DNA from: an uncultured Pseudomonadota bacterium | GTDB taxonomy: Bacteria; SAR324; NAC60-12 | DNA: 52,096 nucleotides | NCBI GenBank assembly: GCA_964597275.1 | Contig: CAZQXS010000005.1 | Coordinates: forward strand, 5,441-57,536 | Direction of reading: 5' to 3' | Shown here: positions 39 to 40,213 of the stretch, piece after piece | Layout: every line of letters begins with the position of its first letter | How positions within the stretch are numbered: the first letter of the stretch is position 1 | Position numbers and translations under genes: made by a program | Notes under the pieces: model-generated | Seen by the model: only the letters and a program-made list of their open reading frames with translations | The model's database searches: none | Told to the model about the DNA's origin: nothing

Positions 39-1316
39 CTACGACTCCAGCCGCACACGCACAGCGGCGGCGTGGGCGTGGAGCTGTTCTTCTTCGGCGA
101 AGCGGATGATCGCGGGACCGTCCTGCCGGAGGCGCTGCGGGGAGTAGCGCAGGATGGAACTGGTCTTGACGAAATCCGGCACGCCGAGTGGCGAGGCGAA
201 CTTGGCGCAACCGGAGGTCGGCAGCGTGTGATTGGGTCCGGCAAAGTAGTCGCCCACAGGCTCCGGGGTGTCGGCTCCCAAGAAAATCGCGCCCGCGTTG
301 CGGATTTGGGCGATGTCCTCCAGCGGATTTGGCGTGAGCAGTTCGAGGTGTTCCGGAGCGAGTTCGTTGACGACCTCAAAGGTTTCGTCCAGCGACTCCA
401 CCACGATGAGGGCGGAGCGGTGGGCAAAGGAGGCTTCGAGGATTTCCCGGCGGGGCAGGGTGGGCACGAGTTCGAGCAGACGCTGCCGCACCGCTTCGGC
501 TTGAGTCGCGGAGGTCGTGACCAAAATCGCCCCGGCTTCCGGATCGTGTTCGGCCTGCGAGAGCAAATCACGGACGAGGTATTCTGTGGGCACGTCCTCG
601 CGGTCGCAGACGATCAGGATTTCGCTCGGTCCTGCAAACGAATCAATGCCGACGATTCCGTACACCTGCCGCTTGGCCTCGGCGACGTAGGCGTTTCCGG
701 GTCCGGTGATCTTCACGACCTTCGGAATCGTTGCGGTGCCATACGCCAACGCGCCCACGGCCTGTGCGCCCCCAACGGCATAAAGCTCGTTCACGCCCAG
801 CAATGCCGCACACGCCATCACCAGTTCGTGGGGGCATCCGTCCTTGCCCGGAGGCGAAACCATCGCAATGCGCGGCACCCCGGCGACTTGCGCGGGAATC
901 ACGTTCATCAGCAACGAGGAGGGGTAGAACGCCCGTCCGCCCGGAATGTACACCCCGGCGCTGTCCACGGGCGTGACCTTCCAGCCAAGGATGGTGCCGT
1001 CCGGACTGAAATCAAGCTGGCTGTCGGTCTTCTGGCGCTCGTGAAACTGGCGGATGTTCGCCGCCGCCCGCTCCAGCACCTCCCGGAGTTCCGCATCCAC
1101 CGCAACAAGCGACTGCTGAAGCCGTGCTTCCGGAACCCGGAAGTCCTCGATCCGCACGCCATCAAAACGCTCGGTGCATTCCCGCACCGCCACATCACCG
1201 CGACGGCGGACCTCCTTGAGAATCGCCCCGACAGTTTCCGCAACATCCGGCGAGGGTTCCACGGCCCCGAAGGTTGCGCGGAATTCGTCAAACCCGTGAA
1301 AGAGCTTCACCTGCAT
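39..1316 (-). CDS. hisD: Histidinol dehydrogenase
   Basis: Motifs GVYIPGG, YPSS, GGAQA, GPGNAYV, AGPSE, SQAEHD, APEHL, GDYFAGPNHTLPT; start overlaps the smc stop (TGATG). Confidence 0.97.
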   Translation of the reverse strand: MQVKLFHGFDEFRATFGAVEPSPDVAETVGAILKEVRRRGDVAVRECTERFDGVRIEDFRVPEARLQQSLVAVDAELREVLERAAANIRQFHERQKTDSQLDFSPDGTILGWKVTPVDSAGVYIPGGRAFYPSSLLMNVIPAQVAGVPRIAMVSPPGKDGCPHELVMACAALLGVNELYAVGGAQAVGALAYGTATIPKVVKITGPGNAYVAEAKRQVYGIVGIDSFAGPSEILIVCDREDVPTEYLVRDLLSQAEHDPEAGAILVTTSATQAEAVRQRLLELVPTLPRREILEASFAHRSALIVVESLDETFEVVNELAPEHLELLTPNPLEDIAQIRNAGAIFLGADTPEPVGDYFAGPNHTLPTSGCAKFASPLGVPDFVKTSSILRYSPQRLRQDGPAIIRFAEEEQLHAHAAAVRVRLES

Positions 1317-4300
1317 CAGGCCACCATGCGTTCGGCTTCCTGAAAGTGGACCGAGACGGTTCTGGAAATGCCCGGTTCTTCCATCGTCACGCCGTAGAGC
1401 CGATCCCCCAATTCCATCGTCTTCTTGTTGTGAGTGATGATGATGAACTGCGAACCGTCCGCCAACTGCCGGATGAGGTTGTTGAAGCGCCCCACGTTGG
1501 CATCATCCAGCGGCGCGTCCACCTCGTCCAGCAGGCAGAACGGGCTAGGCTTGATGAGGAAGATGGCAAAGATCAGCGAGATCGCTGTGAGTGCCTTTTC
1601 GCCGCCAGAGAGCAGGTTGATGTTCTGGAGCTTCTTGCCCGGAGGCTGGGCCACGATATCAATGCCCGCGTCCAGCAAATCCTCGGATTCGGTCAGCACC
1701 ATCCGTGCCTCGCCTCCGCCAAAGAGCTTGGTGAAGACCTCCCCAAAATGCTCGTTGACCTGATCGAACATTTCCCGGAAGCGTCGGCGGGATTCGACGT
1801 TGATGTCGCGGATGGTGCGCTTGAGGTCGTCCGCCGCCTTCTGCAAGTCGTCGGACTGCTCCGTGAGGAACTGCAACCGCTCCACCAAGGCAGCGTGTTC
1901 GTCCGGCGCGGCGAGATTGACCGGGCCGAGCGCGTTGAGCTTGGCCTTGAGCCGCTGCACCTCGCGGGAGAGTTCGCGCACCTTCAGGGTGTCCAAATCC
2001 AGCCCCGGCACCAGCGTTGCGGGAGGCTGCTCGGTGAACTCCTGAAGCTGGGCTTCCAACTGCTCGCGCTGCATGCGGAATTCCGCCAGCTTGAGCGAGG
2101 TGTCGTGAGCCGCACTGACGGCGGTTTCCAGCGTCTTCTGCTTGGCTTGCAGGGTTTGGGTGAGTTCGTTCTGTTTCTCGGTCTGCTCGCCGTGGCGCAC
2201 GGTTTCGGAATCCAGTTCCCCCTTGAGCGTGTCCCGCGACTGCAACAGGCCGCCGAAAGAGGCATCAATCGCCTCGATGCGCTCGCGGCTTTGCGTGAGC
2301 CGACGGCTACTTTCGGACTGCCCGGATTCCAGCAATTGCAGGCGTTGGCGGGATTCGCCATGCTCCTGACGCAGGCGGACGTGCGTGGCCTCGGCGGTCT
2401 TCTGCTGCTCCATCACCTCGGTGAGCGCGACCCGCCGTTGCAGTAAATCCTCCGCTGCGTCCTCCACCCGACGGCTTTGGGACTGAATGCGCTCCTGCTG
2501 GGTTTCGGCAGTCGCCTCCAATTCCTGCCGCTCCGTTTCCAACTCTCCGAGCAGCTTGGTGGTGTTTTCGTAACGCGACTCGGCTCCGGAGATTTCCTCC
2601 TGAAGCTGCCGCAGGTCGGAGTCGAACTGCTCGGAGGTTTGCCGGGCACGGTTCAGTTCAAGCCGATGATGCTCCAGTTCCTTGGTGTGGCTGAGGACAT
2701 CGAGTTCCTGTTCGCGCTGCTCCGACTGCACCTGCTCCAGCCCCTCCTGCGTCTGGCCCCACGCCTCGCGCAGTGCTTCCTGCTGGCCCTCCTGCTCAGA
2801 AATCCCCTCGGCCAGTTCCGTGGTTTGCTGCTCCAGCGTTTCAATCTCCTGCTGGCGTGCGAGGAAGCCCAGCGAGCCTTCTTGCGACGATCCCGTTTGC
2901 ACCGTCACCTCGTCCATCCGCACACCGTCCGGCCCCATCCAAATCACGGAGCCGTCCGGCCATTCCTCCTGAAGGTGCGTCCACACGCCGGACTCGTCCA
3001 TGCGGAAGCGCTGGAAAAAGCGGGAACCCCACGCCTCCAGCAGTTCCCGGAAACTGAGGTGATCGGCCAGCGAGGTTCCCGGTAAGTTCGCGTCCGGAAC
3101 GCCGGGGAGCCGATCCAACGCCAGAAAACGCAACGAACCAAAACCCTCCTGCTGGCAAAACTCGGTGAGTCCCGGAAGCTGGGCGGACTGCTCCACCACG
3201 ATCCAGTCCAGCACCTCGGACAGCACAGGCGCGACCTGCTCCAGCCACTCCGGCTCTGTGATCAGATGATCGGCCAGCAAGCCCCGGATGCCCCACTGCT
3301 CCCGGAGTTCCGGCTGCTCGCGGAGCCGTTCCATGAACTGCCGGACGCTGTCGCTGAAGTCCTCGTACTGCCCTTGAATCTGCTGAAGCGATTCCAGCCG
3401 AGAACGCGCCGCCCCGTGCTGAAAGCGCAGTTTCCGGATGCGCTGGTCCAACTCGTCAATGTCGCTTTCCTGCTGGGAAGAGCGCAGCCCCAACTCTTCA
3501 ATCCGGGTTTCCAGCGTCGCCCGTCCCGCTTGCAGCGACTCCAGTTGCTGCTGGCTGGCGTGGGTGCGGGATTCCGCCTGACGCACCAGTTCGGCATTGG
3601 CCTCGCGCTGCTGCTGCAAACGCTGAAGCCGCTCCCGAAACTGCGTCAGCCGCTCCTCCAGAAAGTTGCGCTGGTTCGTCTGGTTCGTCAGTTCCATGTG
3701 GAGTTGGAGCAGTCGCTTCTGCAAGGACTGCAACACGCTGGTTGCTTCCTGCAAGACATCGTTCTGCTCGGCACGAACCCGCTCAATTTCGGTGACTTCG
3801 TCGGCCAGTTGGTCGCGCTTTTCGGTCAGCGTTTCAAACTGCCCGGAGGCATCCTGCACTGCGCCGTCCAGCCGAGCCAGCCGCCCCTGCAACTCCTCCA
3901 GTTCCTGCTCCTGCCGCCCCTGCTGTTCCTTGGCGTTTTCGATGGTTTGCTGTTCCAGCCGCCGCTGGTTTTCCGCCTCCTGAATCTCGCGTTCTTTCTG
4001 GAAGAGCGCTTCGCGCTTGCGGGTGAGTTGGTCGGTGCGCTGGGTTTGCTCCAGACTGAGGCGTTGCAGATCGGCCTCCACCACAGACTTCTCGGTCTGC
4101 AAATCCTGCTGACGCTGCTGCGCTTCGGCAACTTTGGCCCCCAGCTTTTCCTCCTGAAGCCCCACCTCGTGCCAGCGCAACACGATCAGGTTCTGCTCGG
4201 TTTCCCGGCACTGGGCCTGAAGGTCGAGATAGGTCTGCGCATTCTCAACGTGTTCCCGGAGCCCTTCCTCGCGGTCCTGCAACTCGCCCAGCACATCGTT

Positions 4301-4885
4301 GACGCGCAGCAGGTTTTGGCCCGTCTCTTCCAGACGACGCTCGGCGGCCTGCCGCTTGGTGCGGAACTTGACGATTCCGGCAGCGTCATCAATGAGGGTG
4401 CGGCGATCGGCGGGCTTGGCGCTGACAATCTCCCCAACACGCCCCTGCTCCACAATCGAATAGCCCGTGCCCCCAATGCCCGTGTCCATGAACAACTCCC
4501 GGATGTCCATGAGGCGCACCGGAGTCTTGTTGATCATGTACACGCTTTCGCCAGAGCGGTAGAGGCGGCGCGTGACGGCGATTTCGGAATATTCGTTGAG
4601 ACGGGGCAGGGCGTCCCCGGTGGGATTGGCAAAGGTGAGTGTCACCTCTGCCATGCCGAGCGGCTTTTGAAACGCGGACCCGGAGAAGATGACATCCTCC
4701 ATCGAACCGCCGCGCAAGTGCTTGGGGCGCTGCTCCCCCAACACCCAGCGGATCGCATCCACCACGTTGCTCTTGCCGCACCCGTTGGGGCCAACGACCA
4801 CGGTGGTGCCGTGTTCGGTGAAGCCCATCTCCACCGTATGACAAAAGGACTTGAAGCCGGAAACTTTCAGGCTTTTGATCCGCAT
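1316..4885 (-). CDS. smc: Chromosome segregation protein SMC
   Basis: GFKSF, Walker A GPNGCGKSN, Q-loop EQG, long coiled coils with a central hinge, signature LSGGEK, Walker B/D-loop LLDEVDAPLD; 1189 aa. Confidence 0.97.
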   Translation of the reverse strand: MRIKSLKVSGFKSFCHTVEMGFTEHGTTVVVGPNGCGKSNVVDAIRWVLGEQRPKHLRGGSMEDVIFSGSAFQKPLGMAEVTLTFANPTGDALPRLNEYSEIAVTRRLYRSGESVYMINKTPVRLMDIRELFMDTGIGGTGYSIVEQGRVGEIVSAKPADRRTLIDDAAGIVKFRTKRQAAERRLEETGQNLLRVNDVLGELQDREEGLREHVENAQTYLDLQAQCRETEQNLIVLRWHEVGLQEEKLGAKVAEAQQRQQDLQTEKSVVEADLQRLSLEQTQRTDQLTRKREALFQKEREIQEAENQRRLEQQTIENAKEQQGRQEQELEELQGRLARLDGAVQDASGQFETLTEKRDQLADEVTEIERVRAEQNDVLQEATSVLQSLQKRLLQLHMELTNQTNQRNFLEERLTQFRERLQRLQQQREANAELVRQAESRTHASQQQLESLQAGRATLETRIEELGLRSSQQESDIDELDQRIRKLRFQHGAARSRLESLQQIQGQYEDFSDSVRQFMERLREQPELREQWGIRGLLADHLITEPEWLEQVAPVLSEVLDWIVVEQSAQLPGLTEFCQQEGFGSLRFLALDRLPGVPDANLPGTSLADHLSFRELLEAWGSRFFQRFRMDESGVWTHLQEEWPDGSVIWMGPDGVRMDEVTVQTGSSQEGSLGFLARQQEIETLEQQTTELAEGISEQEGQQEALREAWGQTQEGLEQVQSEQREQELDVLSHTKELEHHRLELNRARQTSEQFDSDLRQLQEEISGAESRYENTTKLLGELETERQELEATAETQQERIQSQSRRVEDAAEDLLQRRVALTEVMEQQKTAEATHVRLRQEHGESRQRLQLLESGQSESSRRLTQSRERIEAIDASFGGLLQSRDTLKGELDSETVRHGEQTEKQNELTQTLQAKQKTLETAVSAAHDTSLKLAEFRMQREQLEAQLQEFTEQPPATLVPGLDLDTLKVRELSREVQRLKAKLNALGPVNLAAPDEHAALVERLQFLTEQSDDLQKAADDLKRTIRDINVESRRRFREMFDQVNEHFGEVFTKLFGGGEARMVLTESEDLLDAGIDIVAQPPGKKLQNINLLSGGEKALTAISLIFAIFLIKPSPFCLLDEVDAPLDDANVGRFNNLIRQLADGSQFIIITHNKKTMELGDRLYGVTMEEPGISRTVSVHFQEAERMVA

Positions 4886-4905
4886 GACTTCCCTGTCGCT
4901 GGACC

Positions 4906-4976
4906 GTTTGGTTAGGTGTTTAGGCGGTAGCTGTTTAGGCTGTAGGCTGTAGGGGTTTAGGCCGTAGGCGTTTAGG
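4906..4976 (+). repeat. Left heptamer array (about 9 GTTTAGG/CTGTAGG-type units), inverted relative to the array at 5332-5414
   Basis: gttagg t gtttagg cggtagc t gtttagg ctgtagg ctgtagg g gtttagg ccgtagg c gtttagg read directly; the last unit contains the TAA stop of the four-helix-bundle gene. Confidence 0.95.
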
Positions 4977-5328
4977 ATTTTCGCAGGGAGCGGATCAGGG
5001 AGCCAAGCACTTTCTCAGCCTCTACCAACTTCTGCTCAAAAGGAGCCGCCTCTGGCGTTTGCAGATACCCCAAACGCGAGGACAATCCCGTTTGGTAGTG
5101 CAGTTCTCTTAGCGAACCAAACGCGATCTCAAGAAAACGGACGTACTCCGCCTGACTTTCTCTCGCACAGCCTTCAACAATGTTCGAGGGCACGGAAACC
5201 GCCGCTCTTCTCATTTGAGAAGTCAGCCCATACACTTCGCCCTTGGGGAAGCTTCGGGTGAGGGCATAGGTCAACATCGCCACCTCATCTGCCAGTTCAA
5301 ATGCCCGGAGTTTCGTATGATCCCGCAC
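4972..5328 (-). CDS. Four helix bundle protein (23S rRNA intervening-sequence protein / TIGR02436 family)
   Basis: 118 aa, GTG start; family-typical FP..E.YGLTSQMRRAAVSVPSNIVEG.AR and FL.IA.GSL.EL. Confidence 0.92.
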   Translation of the reverse strand: MRDHTKLRAFELADEVAMLTYALTRSFPKGEVYGLTSQMRRAAVSVPSNIVEGCARESQAEYVRFLEIAFGSLRELHYQTGLSSRLGYLQTPEAAPFEQKLVEAEKVLGSLIRSLRKS

Positions 5329-5331
5329 AAT

Positions 5332-5414
5332 CCCCTACAGCCTAAACCCCCACAGCCTACAGCCTAAACCCCTACAGCCTAAACCCCTACAGCCTACAGC
5401 CTAAACTCCTAAAA
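5332..5414 (-). repeat. Right heptamer array (11 CCTACAG/CCTAAAC-type units on the plus strand)
   Basis: cc cctacag cctaaac c cccacag cctacag cctaaac c cctacag cctaaac c cctacag cctacag cctaaac t cctaaaa; 5377-5406 is the exact reverse complement of 4933-4962. Confidence 0.95.
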
Positions 5415-5921
5415 CGGAATGTCGTCCTTGATGAAATCATCATCGGGGTTGGACCGCTGTGGCGCATTGCTCCCGTAGTCGGCTCTTCCGCCGCCACTGC
5501 CACCGCTGGCTCCTCCCTCATTCCTGGGGGCCTGCTGATTCGCAGAGCGTCCCTGTCCCCCGCCGTAGCCGCCGGAGTCGCCATCGGACTGGCGGGATTC
5601 GAGAAACTGGATTCCGGTGGCCACGACTTCGGTACGATAGCGTTTCTGCCCCTGCTGGTCCTCCCAGCTTCGAGTTTGCAGACGGCCTTCGATGTACACC
5701 GAACGCCCTTTTTTCAGATAGTTCTGAGCCAGATCGGCCAAGCGGTCAAAGGCGACAATGTCGTGCCACTCGGTCTTTTCCTGCCGATTGCCCTGCTTGT
5801 CGGTCCAGCGATCCGTGGTCGCCAGCGAGAAATTCGCCACCGCGCTGCCTGCTTGCGTGTAGCGGATTTCCGGATCCTTGCCGAGATTGCCAATCAGCAT
5901 CACCTTGTTCAAACTTCCCAT
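5409..5921 (-). CDS. ssb: Single-stranded DNA-binding protein
   Basis: [31 protein letters not shown], Gly-rich linker, C-terminal DDIPF. Confidence 0.97.
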
Positions 5922-37437: not shown

Positions 37438-38553
37438 ATGAACCGCTTGCTCCACTCCAATCCAGCCTTCGGGCAGCAGAGCCTCAAACGGCTGGGTCTG
37501 GCGATCTTCCTGATGGTGCTGGGAGCGACCTTGGCTCATGCACAGGAGGGCGTGTTGCGCATCGAGCGCGGCTTCGCCAAGATCACTCGCGGAGCGCAGG
37601 TTCGGATTCTGCGGGACATCGGAAAGCCCATTGCCCTCTCACTGGAAGACCGTGTGCAAGTCGGCACAAACTCAAAGGCCACGGTGTGGATCCGGGAGGG
37701 CGAAGAGACGGTGCAGTTGGCTCCGAGGTCGTACTTTTCGCTCGACAGCGTCAGTGCCGAGGAAACCACGATTTCCATGCCCACGGGCAAGGCGCAATTC
37801 AAAGTCACCCGGAGGCTGGGCAAGCTCGGCGGAAAAAAACTCGGAGGCAAGCTCGGAGGCAAGCAGTTCGGCAGCAAGGCAAAATTCCAGGTCCGGACGG
37901 TCACGGCGATTGTCGCTGTGCGCGGGACCGAGTTCGTGCTTGGCTCCGAAAGCGGACAGACCAGCCTGCTGACGCTTGCTGGCGAGGTGGCAATGGCCTC
38001 TGCCGAGGCGCCAGAGATCGAGGTCACGGTGCCGGAGAACCAAGCCTCCACAGTGCAGCGCGGACTGGCACCCACCGCACCCGTGTCCGTGCCTCCAGAA
38101 GTGCAGAAGGAAATCACGCAATCCGACAGCGCCAACTCCTTCAAGGTGGTGGCCTTCCCGCCTGCCGTGCCCATCGAACAGGCGCGTCAGCAAAAGAAGC
38201 GCGAGGAAGCCAAAAAGAAGGAGGAGGCGAAAAAGAAAGAAGAGAAGAAGAAAGCGGACAAGAAATCGGAGAAGAAGGACTCCAAGCAGAAGGCTGCGAG
38301 CAAGAAGGACTCCGGAAAACAATCTGCACAAAAGCAGGATGCCAAAAAGCCCGCAAGCGGTGGCACTCCTGGGGCATCCGAGGAAAAGCGCCCTGCTCCG
38401 ACTCAGCCTCCTGCTCCCGTGCCGAAAAACCTCCCCAGGCTCGACAACCTCCCCCAGCTTCCAGAGGGCTTGGACCAAGTGCTGGAGAACATCCAGCAGG
38501 AAACCAACCGCACGCGGAAAAAAGTCATTCGGCTGAAGCTGAATCGGAAGTAG
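37438..38553 (+). CDS. FecR-domain exported protein with a Lys/Glu- and Pro-rich tail
   Basis: Signal peptide (..ATLAHA|QE), D.VQVG..SKA, FQVRTVTAIVAVRGTEF, GEV. Confidence 0.85.
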   Translation: MNRLLHSNPAFGQQSLKRLGLAIFLMVLGATLAHAQEGVLRIERGFAKITRGAQVRILRDIGKPIALSLEDRVQVGTNSKATVWIREGEETVQLAPRSYFSLDSVSAEETTISMPTGKAQFKVTRRLGKLGGKKLGGKLGGKQFGSKAKFQVRTVTAIVAVRGTEFVLGSESGQTSLLTLAGEVAMASAEAPEIEVTVPENQASTVQRGLAPTAPVSVPPEVQKEITQSDSANSFKVVAFPPAVPIEQARQQKKREEAKKKEEAKKKEEKKKADKKSEKKDSKQKAASKKDSGKQSAQKQDAKKPASGGTPGASEEKRPAPTQPPAPVPKNLPRLDNLPQLPEGLDQVLENIQQETNRTRKKVIRLKLNRK

Positions 38554-38555
38554 TC

Positions 38556-39299
38556 ATGGCCAAGCGTTGTCGGCTCGATGTGCTGCTGGTGGAGCGAGGA
38601 CTCGCCGAAACCCGGGAAAAGGCGCGAGCCTTGGTGCTGGCCGGAGCCGTGCGCGTCAATGGCGAAGTTTCGGGAAAGCCCGGAACTGCGGTCTTGGCGA
38701 CGGCTGTGTTGGAAGTTGTCGGGCAGGATCATCCCTACGCCAGCCGGGGCGGCCTCAAGCTGGAAAAGGCGCTCCACGCCTTTCAGATCAACCCGCAGGG
38801 CTGGACCGCACTTGATGTCGGCGCATCCACCGGAGGCTTCACCGATTGTCTGCTTCAACATGGTGCGGCCAAGGTTTATGCCGTGGATGTGGGCTACGGG
38901 CAGTTGGCGTGGAAGTTGCGGCAAGAGGACCGTGTGGTTGTGCTGGAACGCACCAACTTCCGAAACCTTGCTTACGAAACCATCGGCGAAACCGTGGGCC
39001 TTGTGGTCATTGACGCCTCGTTCATTTCCCTGAAGCTGCTCCTGCCCAAGGTCCGGGAATTCCTGACTCCGGAAGGGCAGGTGCTTGCGCTCGTGAAACC
39101 GCAGTTCGAGGCGGGCCGAGCGGAGGTGGGGAAGCGTGGGCGTGTGGCAGAAGGCGAAGTGCATGAGCGTGTGCTGGACGAACTCGGCACCGCCGCCCAA
39201 GCCTTGGGGTTCCGGGTGCTTGGCCAGTGCGATTCTCCGATTCTTGGAAAAAAAAGCGGCAACCGGGAATTTTTCCTGCACCTTAGCTTAGGGGTTTAG
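38556..39299 (+). CDS. tlyA: TlyA family rRNA (cytidine-2'-O)-methyltransferase
   Basis: S4 domain RLDVLLVERGL, SRGGLKL, LDVGASTGGFTD, DVGYGQL, SFISL, KPQFE, GN.EF. Confidence 0.95.
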   Translation: MAKRCRLDVLLVERGLAETREKARALVLAGAVRVNGEVSGKPGTAVLATAVLEVVGQDHPYASRGGLKLEKALHAFQINPQGWTALDVGASTGGFTDCLLQHGAAKVYAVDVGYGQLAWKLRQEDRVVVLERTNFRNLAYETIGETVGLVVIDASFISLKLLLPKVREFLTPEGQVLALVKPQFEAGRAEVGKRGRVAEGEVHERVLDELGTAAQALGFRVLGQCDSPILGKKSGNREFFLHLSLGV

Positions 39300-39336
39300 G
39301 CTGTAGGGGTTTAGGCTGTTAGGAGTTTAGGCGTAG
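39283..39336 (+). repeat. Solo copy of the GTTTAGG/CTGTAGG heptamer array
   Basis: ttagc ttagg g gtttagg ctgtagg g gtttagg ctgttagg a gtttagg cgtag; 39289-39319 is the exact reverse complement of 5359-5389. Confidence 0.92.
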
Positions 39337-39358
39337 TGATTTCGGTGGGAGCGAGCAG

Positions 39359-40213
39359 ATGAGCGACTTGAGGGTTGGCACGGGGTATCCGGGGGGCCGC
39401 GAGGAACTGCGCCGAGTTCCGCTGGAGCACATCTTCCCAAACCCGCAGCAGCCCCGGCAGCGTTTTTCGGAAGAGGCGTTGCAGCGTCTGGCACAGTCCA
39501 TCCGCACCCAGGGCGTTTTGCAGCCGCTGGTGGTGCGTTCCTCCGGATCAGGAGGCTACGAGCTGATCGCGGGAGAGCGACGCTGGCGGGCACTCAAGCT
39601 GCTGGAGGCCAAGGACGCGCCCGTGCTGATCCGGGACATTCCGGACGAGGCGGTACTGGAAGTCGCGCTGCTGGAGAACATCCAGCGCGAAAACCTCACG
39701 CCCATCGAGGAAGCCCGCAGTTACCGGCTGCTCGTGGAGCAGCACGGCTACACGCAGGAAGCGCTGGCCCGGAGACTCGGAAAGGACCGCTCCACGATTG
39801 CCAACCTGATGCGGCTGCTGGCGCTCTCCACGCCCGTGCAAAACGATCTGGAATCCGGGCGGCTCACCATTGGGCACGCCCGCGCTCTGCTTCCCCTTCC
39901 TGATGAAGCCGCCCAACTGCACCTGCGGGAGCGGCTGCTGCGGCACGGCTGGAACGTGCGGGAGACCGAGAAGCAGGTGCGGGCATGGCTAGCACGGCTC
40001 CCCCAAACTCCCCAGCCCAAGGGCCAAAACCCAAAAAACACCACGCCCTCGTCCCGCTTGCGCCCGGAAATCAAGGCACTCGAAGACGAACTGGCGCGGA
40101 TGCTCGGAACACGGGTGGCCCTCACCTATCAGAAGGGGCGCGGCTCGGTGCGCATTGACTACCACTCGCTGGATGAGTTCGAGCGGCTTTATGAACGACT
40201 GATCGGCTCCTGA
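39359..40213 (+). CDS. parB: ParB/Spo0J family protein
   Basis: NPQQPR..F, G.LQPL.VR, IAGERRWRA, ENIQRENL, HTH GKDRSTIAN..RLL, GHARALL; no parA adjacent. Confidence 0.88.
   Translation: MSDLRVGTGYPGGREELRRVPLEHIFPNPQQPRQRFSEEALQRLAQSIRTQGVLQPLVVRSSGSGGYELIAGERRWRALKLLEAKDAPVLIRDIPDEAVLEVALLENIQRENLTPIEEARSYRLLVEQHGYTQEALARRLGKDRSTIANLMRLLALSTPVQNDLESGRLTIGHARALLPLPDEAAQLHLRERLLRHGWNVRETEKQVRAWLARLPQTPQPKGQNPKNTTPSSRLRPEIKALEDELARMLGTRVALTYQKGRGSVRIDYHSLDEFERLYERLIGS

Follow-up and report, generated by a model that had tools for sequence, protein, structure and literature searches.

A solo heptamer array at the tlyA–parB junction of an uncultured SAR324 bacterium belongs to a dispersed class of intergenic repeats

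Between tlyA and parB in the draft genome of an uncultured SAR324 bacterium (3.9 Mb in 262 contigs, 60% G+C; hereafter G000) lies a short tandem array of the TAGG-type heptamer family, at positions 39283–39336 (+ strand) of the 52,096-nucleotide (nt) stretch analyzed here, which we call the window and which corresponds to C5:5441-57536 (Cn denotes contigs and sites of G000). The array is an ordinary solo copy, and a new member, of a published class of dispersed intergenic heptamer repeats. It overlaps the end of tlyA and has no counterpart at the same place in two sister genomes of the same genus (G001 and G002). On balance, we favor the view that it is a by-product of repeat turnover, most likely through the addition of a single arm, and that it has no function of its own at this site.

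The array is composed of CTTAGC, two copies of a consensus 15-mer (TAGGGGTTTAGGCTG) and a variant unit (TGTTAGGAGTTTAGGC), with six spaced TAGG cores altogether, and is reported by Tandem Repeats Finder at 39288–39332 with a period of 15 (7 + 8), 2.9 copies and 90% matches. Its G-rich strand is the sense strand of both neighboring genes. The upstream gene, tlyA (38547–39299, + strand, with the start at 38547 as translated for the Pfam search and at 38580 by our codon model), encodes a TlyA-type rRNA methyltransferase with S4 and FtsJ domains. The protein ends in ...FFLHLSLGV and is followed by a TAG at 39297–39299, so that its last four codons and its stop codon are array sequence, as had been claimed in a preliminary description of this DNA; the FtsJ match stops at residue 246 of 250. 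The downstream gene, parB (39359–40213, + strand; Pfam ParB_N, HTH_ParB and ParB_C), starts 59 nt past the tlyA stop codon with an ATG that has GGGAG 7 nt upstream.

The same repeat also builds the arms of a gene-bearing hairpin 34 kb away, in which a four-helix-bundle gene of the PF05635 (23S_rRNA_IVP) family is enclosed between ssb and smc. A script comparison gave 31 identical letters of 31 between 39289–39319 and the reverse complement of 5359–5389 in the ssb-side arm of this cassette, and the variant TAGGAGTTTAGGC is common to the tlyA array and to that arm, beside the ssb stop codon; both likenesses had been noted before and hold. No such surroundings exist at tlyA–parB. As had been stated, there is no opposite arm, in that a search of 800 nt to each side brought up no complementary sequence (best local scores 15–16), and there is no four-helix gene, the only two PF05635 matches of the genome being window 4972–5328 and one on C74. 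For the spacer between the array and the parB start (39337–39358, + strand), no convincing homologue came up in the sister genomes, in the cassette or in a palindromic element of this genome that is described below.

The array is real at this location. Twenty public runs from nine studies, of marine or seawater metagenomes and with no RNA run on record among them, hold the stretch in whole or in part, and the contigs of four of these were examined. The left junction (38900–39318) lies on one contig with no differing letters both in the likely source run (X1) and in a run from a different study (X7), and the right junction (39290–39700) likewise in X1 and in a run from a third study (X5). That no contig crosses the array from end to end is as expected, since the assemblies were built with k=31 and the genome has more than one copy of the 31-mer. 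The array is thus not a product of mis-assembly, a point that the preliminary description had named for checking.

Comparison with relatives suggests when the array arrived. TlyA was detected in 40 of the 41 genomes searched (G000 included), and the tlyA loci of 29 relatives were compared. In 20 of these 29, parB follows tlyA, with −1 to 56 nt between the tlyA stop codon and the parB alignment, and none of the 29 has an array, a cassette or room for a cassette at this junction; a relative with a full four-helix cassette here, which the preliminary description had envisaged, did not turn up. In G001 and G002, whose TlyA proteins are 89% and 87% identical to that of G000, TlyA ends in ...FFLHL(D/A)LANSGAER(V/A)C without an array, and in-frame starts of parB occur only inside tlyA, the nearest being a GTG that gives an 11-nt overlap. 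Homology between G000 and the sisters is clear up to ...CACCTT and resumes some 25 nt ahead of CGAGTTCC. The interval enclosed by these anchors measures 79 nt in the sisters and 128 nt in G000, which amounts to a net increase of 49 nt as compared with an array of 48–54 nt. A 19-mer of the repeat, searched with up to one mismatch, has 25 hits in G000, 3 in G001, 4 in G002 and none in the 38 other relatives, and the reversed control has none in G000. These comparisons show a lineage-specific addition at the 3′ end of tlyA, with the tlyA/parB overlap of the sisters as the ancestral state.

A solo array thus joined the 3′ end of tlyA in the lineage of this species; it now supplies the last four residues of TlyA together with the TAG, and parB begins 59 nt on, behind a new ATG. 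The array would be tolerated because the TlyA tail and the ParB N-terminus are variable; indeed, TlyA tails past the conserved EFF motif vary widely among the 29 relatives. As for the route, addition of an arm by itself seems the most likely, and arrival of a hairpin with clean loss of its other arm less so.

The tlyA array has many relatives in the same genome. A BLAST search with the 31-mer found 19 arrays at 17 loci on 15 contigs, and 20 arrays with at least three spaced TAGG cores were counted in G000 as against 6–8 in three shuffled versions, so the family exceeds chance. The exact 15-mer TAGGGGTTTAGGCTG occurs 16 times and the exact 31-mer at four places. The 31-nt identity with the ssb-side arm therefore amounts to two consensus 15-mers plus one base and implies no special tie between the two sites. 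Among the 17 loci, there is one gene-bearing pair, two are gene-less hairpins (C81 1926–1961/2000–2049 and C82 9311–9374/9381–9399) and 14 are solo, two of the latter being judged on one side only (C173 at a contig end, C9 beside a run of N). The solo state is thus the usual one in this genome. Arrays are not enriched at contig ends (1 of 524 ends). The earlier remark that the orientation at tlyA matches that of the ssb-side arm is correct for these two sites, where the G-rich strand is sense, but it does not extend to a rule of the family, because the 14 solos split into 6 sense, 7 antisense and 1 unclear. G000 also contains other heptamer families (GGTGGCT, GGTTGTC, CCAGCAA, ACTGATA, AAGGCAG and more).

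A different regularity does hold, with respect to gene ends. We took 34 intergenic heptamer-type arrays of all families that are skewed in G/C and have called genes to their left and right, using gene calls from our own crude codon model (3488 genes, 88.6% of the genome). The G-rich strand has its 5′ end closer to a gene than its 3′ end in 30 of the 34, with median distances of 4.5 and 145.5 nt, respectively; for the tlyA array, the distances are −12 nt (overlap with the tlyA stop codon) and 26 nt to the next gene call. The flanking genes are co-directional for 30 of the 34 arrays, compared with 76% of all adjacent gene pairs. The same rule has been published by Rehm et al. (2015; PMC4692102), in whose account of heptamer repeats the G-rich 5′ end is close to a neighboring open reading frame (ORF), either the stop of an ORF on the sense strand or the start of an ORF on the antisense strand, and the tlyA array obeys it.

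Beyond this genus, the unit is found in distant bacteria. At least 114 stretches of a species-genome collection contain the exact 19-mer, as compared with a chance expectation of about 4 (2 × 596e9 / 4^19). By record title, the 80 titled loci represent at least eight phyla, namely Desulfobacterota, Verrucomicrobiota (including Akkermansia), Bacteroidota, Planctomycetota, Nitrospirota, Lentisphaerota, Kiritimatiellota/Calditrichota and Pseudomonadota. With the 17 loci of G000 and the hits in the same-genus genomes, this bears out the earlier view of a dispersed family as opposed to local slippage. We tallied arrays of at least three units in the 114 loci, accepting as a partner at least two units within 700 nt. 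A G-rich arm was followed by a C-rich arm in 62 pairings, of which 9 enclose a PF05635 gene, 51 have at most 250 nt between the arms and 2 are longer; the reverse order was seen in 7 pairings, mostly the facing arms of neighboring hairpins (a few arrays are counted in two pairings). No partner was found for 86 arrays, 70 of which are clear of the locus ends. The solo state is therefore common wherever the family was sampled, and the polarity of the hairpins is fixed, with the G-rich arm 5′ and the C-rich arm 3′, which is equivalent to the position rule. In L120, L185 and L186, hairpins stand side by side in tandem.

Some solos retain traces of a second arm. For 88 clear solos from the other phyla and G000, we counted hexamers complementary to the array (reverse-complement hexamers) in the 150 nt on each side. 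There were 178 of them 3′ of the G-rich strand and 31 of them 5′ of it; by array, 30 have more downstream, 8 have more upstream and 50 are tied. Controls were symmetric (reversed hexamers 81/80, complemented 79/71, direct 92/100). The solos of G000 itself show no residual second arm within this distance, and the tlyA array has a single chance hexamer, which lies inside parB.

Within the genus, orthologous sites differ in what they hold. The C183 site has an 86-nt solo in G000 and a 17-nt gap in G001, the locus not being found in G002. At C192, G000 has a solo (C192:3162-3232), G001 has an array of an unrelated heptamer family and G002 has none; at C180, the solo of G000 (C180:2236-2271) is matched by a hairpin of an unrelated heptamer family in G001 and a 6-nt gap in G002. 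The gene-less hairpin at C81 corresponds to a short solo C-rich arm in G001 and to 120 nt of unrelated sequence in G002. A long array at C6 is short in both sisters, C130 has no array in G000 and a solo in each sister, and solos are shared with G001 at C128, C8 and C78 and with G002 at C68 and C9. The number of units differs between sister species at C6, C128 and C78. Finally, the ssb–smc site has the full cassette in G000, one G unit with about 40 nt of the PF05635 gene 3′ end and the C-rich arm in G002, and a more decayed version in G001; the G002 remnant is a true cassette scar. For the C82 locus, neither G001 nor G002 yielded the flanking sequences, and the C42 loci were left out of this comparison as too rearranged. 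Gains unique to G000 number four (tlyA–parB, C183, C192 and C180), all of them solo. Between sister species, arrays are gained, lost, resized and swapped for other families within one and the same gap, and some solos have survived the splitting of the species.

The cassette itself occupies the smc–ssb gap of the window. Its four-helix-bundle gene (4972–5328, − strand; PF05635, E 2.8e-31, 118 amino acids) is flanked by a smc-side arm (4905–4976, + strand, G-rich on the + strand), which holds the TAA of that gene (4972–4974), and by the ssb-side arm (5332–5411, − strand, G-rich on the − strand), which holds the shared 31-mer and the ssb stop codon TAG (5409–5411). On either side are ssb (5409–5921, − strand) and smc (1316–4885, − strand), the latter an ORF of 1189 amino acids with an N-terminal GPNGCGKSN motif, named from the earlier reading and the ORF translation. 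The four-helix gene has a codon-model score of 11.7, compared with 41 for ssb and 407 for smc, and fell below the threshold of the improved gene caller, so it was added by hand; the low score would fit a foreign origin, but the gene is short. The second PF05635 gene of G000 (C74:1453-1767, − strand) lies within C74:1404-1830 between inverted arms of a different heptamer (GTCAGTG / CCACTGG type).

Arm sequence and protein sequence vary together. In a tree of 35 PF05635 proteins, all nine that were labeled as TAGG-armed by a regular expression fall in one clade (support 100/100), the window protein standing beside one metagenome-assembled genome (MAG) of Akkermansia and two of Bacteroidota. The window protein is 68–72% identical to ten proteins from other phyla; nine of these are the labeled ones, and the other, L129_3655 (72%), is likewise flanked by arms of the TAGG type, which the regular expression had failed to pick up. 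It is only 25–47% identical to the PF05635 proteins of its own family and 39% to the second copy in its own genome. Clade members at 57–61% identity have a TGAG-type arm instead, and the copy in G001 (47%) has an AGGAGTC-type arm. This change of arm type with PF05635 subclade is seen at L171:2498-2887 and 5021-5374, L129:1353-1709, L076:1480-1821 and L074:1471-1761. Since arm type tracks protein identity, gene and arms travel together, although the sampling of this tree is confounded in that the loci from other phyla were picked by their repeat.

The number of arrays, in contrast, does not follow the gene. The 80 titled loci include 61 distinct MAG records, and for 50 of these we counted array hits and scored a cognate gene as a match of at least 65% identity over at least 93 residues without a stop codon. 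The median was 12 hits in 17 genomes with such a gene and 10 in 28 without, and 5 had fragments only; MAGs may be incomplete or lack repeats. The idea that an intact cognate gene drives array number, suggested within the genus by the counts given above (G000 with an intact gene, G001 and G002 with decayed ones), was therefore dropped as a general rule on this comparison. The richest genome, G042 (an Opitutales MAG by the title of L097), has 84 hits to the 19-mer at up to two mismatches and no four-helix match at E ≤ 1e-10; large array families can thus exist without a cognate gene in the assembly.

Several observations weigh against an origin of the tlyA array by neutral addition of one arm. 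We know of no mechanism by which an arm alone is added. For the 73 nt that lie between the array and the conserved part of parB, no convincing alignment with the sisters was obtained (89 of 1000 shuffles are as good), so either the array alone was added or a longer piece was replaced; the simpler version of a clean 49-nt insertion, with these 73 nt as diverged ancestral sequence, was tried by global and semi-global alignment and was unconvincing by the same measure. Since the contigs of the public runs end within the repeat, the number of units given here holds for the assembled sequence. In the wider sample, roughly one solo in three shows a decayed second arm, and many solos are thus decayed hairpins, which means that clean loss of an arm is possible at tlyA–parB as well. 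Lastly, the five solos kept at orthologous sister sites (C68, C9, C8, C78 and C128), with flanks 82–88% identical, could reflect selection rather than neutrality.

The best-placed alternative, which we regard as possible but improbable, is that the array is a functional RNA or DNA element that tunes tlyA–parB, bound by the cognate four-helix protein or by a host RNA-binding protein, or pairing in trans with transcripts of C-rich arms. Such a role would agree with the way arm sequence follows the protein clade, down to the change to TGAG-type arms at 57–61% identity and the greater similarity of the window protein to TAGG-armed proteins of other phyla than to those of its own family, and with the persistence of the five orthologous solos; regulatory roles have also been proposed for heptamer repeats by Rehm et al. 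(2015; PMC4692102) and by MacGregor (2015; PMC4679880). However, the clade pattern is subject to the confounded sampling of the tree, and array abundance does not go with the cognate gene, the richest genome having none at the threshold used. The tlyA–parB site does without an array in both sisters and in all other relatives, the C192 and C180 gaps carry another heptamer family or nothing in the sisters, and the orientation of solos to transcription is random. Positions 38900–39700 contain no terminator-like site (GC-rich stem-loop plus T run), no promoter match was found around the array, and the Rfam covariance models gave only a chance microRNA match (E 0.65) outside it. Its G tracts are only GG and GGGG, and ViennaRNA with the G-quadruplex option returned the same fold, with no quadruplex at minimum energy, two-tetrad forms still being possible.

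The preliminary description had offered, among other readings, that the array is the scar of a lost cassette. A complete four-helix cassette would then have inserted after the split from the sisters and afterwards have lost its gene and C-rich arm, which we think unlikely. The process itself occurs in the genus, given the G unit, gene end and C arm left at ssb–smc in G002 and the further decay in G001, and to this extent the proposal stands; the short C arm of G001 at the C81 site, where G000 has a gene-less hairpin, and the excess of complementary hexamers 3′ of solos in the wider sample point the same way. At tlyA–parB, in contrast, there is no sign of it. Local alignment of 39336–39420 to the cassette on both strands gave a score of 18, which 231 of 500 shuffles equal, and a gene stub beside the array was rejected on this basis. 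The partner arm is missing over the 800 nt searched, and no residual complementary unit lies within 150 nt, apart from the chance hexamer in parB. The units are perfect consensus and undecayed, the net gain of 49 nt is about the length of the array itself, and the scenario requires both an insertion and a clean deletion in the lineage of one species.

About equally doubtful, in our estimation, is a broader reading in which a single mobile system takes three states: the solo, the hairpin without a gene and the PF05635 cassette. Its four-helix protein would recognize its own arm, and arm-only copies would be seeded or left at gene boundaries. If it were true, the position rule would be a footprint left by hairpins in which the stem links a stop codon with the start codon that follows, and the cassette 34 kb away would have in the tlyA array either a target in trans or a recent half-site.

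Still less probable is a pre-insertion or landing site that attracts cassettes, as had also been put forward: the C192 and C180 gaps have been reused, with one heptamer family in G000, another in G001 and a short or empty gap in G002, and tandem hairpins adjoin in L120, L185 and L186, but no relative has a cassette at tlyA–parB, solos far outnumber cassettes, and the reuse of gaps is equally explained by selection tolerating insertions only between genes. An assembly artefact, with repeat reads joined wrongly here, can be dismissed almost entirely, for although the 31-mer is repeated, no contig spans the array and depth over 39278–39331 is about eightfold that of the flanks because repeat copies pile up there, both junctions recur without a differing letter in runs of other studies.

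With turnover as the favored origin, the array can be compared with known systems. The class of heptamer repeats has been in print since 1990, when Mazel and co-workers reportedly described the short tandemly repeated repetitive (STRR) heptamers of heterocystous cyanobacteria; several unrelated STRR families are scattered between the genes of one genome, as is the case in G000, while phylum and units differ. The closest documented parallel is the GGGNATC type of Xanthomonas and Nostoc (Rehm et al. 2015; PMC4692102), which shares with the tlyA family dispersed 7-nt tandem units, a mostly non-coding location, preferentially between co-directional ORFs, and a variable number of units, which in the tlyA family differs between sister species. 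Its unit is another one, the tlyA unit being of the TAGG type (7 + 8) with GG and GGGG tracts only and no quadruplex in the predicted fold, G-quadruplex-forming potential being a feature of the Rehm type; the passages of that paper covered here contain no link to four-helix genes or hairpins. The tlyA array has in common with this dispersed class the head-to-tail units, the scattered copies, the non-coding position between co-directional genes and the placement of the G-rich 5′ end. The TAACTGA direct repeats of marine Beggiatoaceae, Cyanobacteria and Bacteroidetes (MacGregor 2015; PMC4679880) are similar, as far as the abstract goes, in that one heptamer is common to distantly related phyla, no means of transfer being evident, and the majority of arrays are only a few nt away from a start codon; they have another unit, were proposed as a binding site of a translational regulator and are not linked to PF05635 in that abstract. 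Heptanucleotide arrays are also listed in Geobacter in the part of Aklujkar et al. (2009; PMC2700814) that was covered.

The cassette at ssb–smc has another counterpart, the intervening sequence (IVS) that Coxiella burnetii has in its 23S rRNA. In the account of Warrier et al. (2016; PMC4990558), as far as its covered passages go, the terminal inverted repeats pair into a stem whose loop carries an S23p ORF, RNase III cuts the stem, and a tandem GACAGAT in 2–3 strain-variable copies stands at the 5′ end of the element. The ssb–smc cassette has the same design, a PF05635-family ORF between inverted arms. The tlyA array, unlike the Coxiella IVS (PMC4990558), has one arm, no ORF and a location between protein genes rather than in rRNA; with IVS-like cassettes it has in common an arm built of heptamers, and it lacks the second, inverted arm and the enclosed PF05635 ORF. 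Our literature searches turned up no paper in which dispersed arrays of heptamers are connected with PF05635 genes located outside rRNA.

Against this background, the tlyA array is a dated and clean example of its class: the sisters show the empty state, with two overlapping housekeeping genes, and the effects of its arrival are visible in a rewritten protein tail, a donated stop codon and two genes uncoupled. Together with the decay at ssb–smc and the gaps that hold different families, the genus offers a natural series on the origin of heptamer arrays and on any role of four-helix (23S-IVS type) genes in it.

Repetitive extragenic palindromic (REP) sequences and REPINs are short, dispersed intergenic palindromic repeats known from the Pseudomonas literature. 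They resemble the tlyA family in being short, dispersed and intergenic, and the tlyA array differs from them in being a direct tandem repeat without a palindrome. G000 does have a palindromic REP-like element (GTAGGAGCGGGCCATGCCCGCGAA), which we take to resemble the Pseudomonas sequences, in 74 copies at up to 3 mismatches in 21 bases (for example C6:18047-18070, C42:22206-22226, C42:24398-24418 and C127:1525-1545). Several copies lie between or beside heptamer arrays; a strict period-7 array adjoins 5 of 67 copies as compared with 1 of 3000 random windows, and by eye further copies precede C-rich heptamers. Such an element beside the tlyA array was considered and rejected. The 3′ flank agrees with the 24-mer GTAGGAGCGGGCCATGCCCGCGAA at 10 of 12 bases, but a score as good is reached by 11% of windows drawn at random from the genome and by 277 shuffles out of 5000, a resemblance at chance level (p about 0.11 and 0.055).

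Other PF05635 elements came to light in the course of the survey. The closed 4.3-Mb genome G008, of the same family as G000, has at least 87 PF05635 matches, most of them near-identical open frames of 120 amino acids. The copies in L088, L093, L094 and L095 (about 1370–2000 in each) form units of roughly 0.7 kb by eye, with short terminal hairpins (CCACCAGCTCTGCTGGTG type) and inverted arms of GTGCTCG repeats, and two units stand head to tail in L095; to judge by this layout, the unit looks like a proliferating small mobile element that carries a four-helix gene. In two Planctomycetota MAGs, the TAGG-armed cassettes L118:6900-7560 and L129:3520-4150 apparently lie, again by eye, between sequences resembling tRNA 3′ ends (GGTTCGA.TCC-type).

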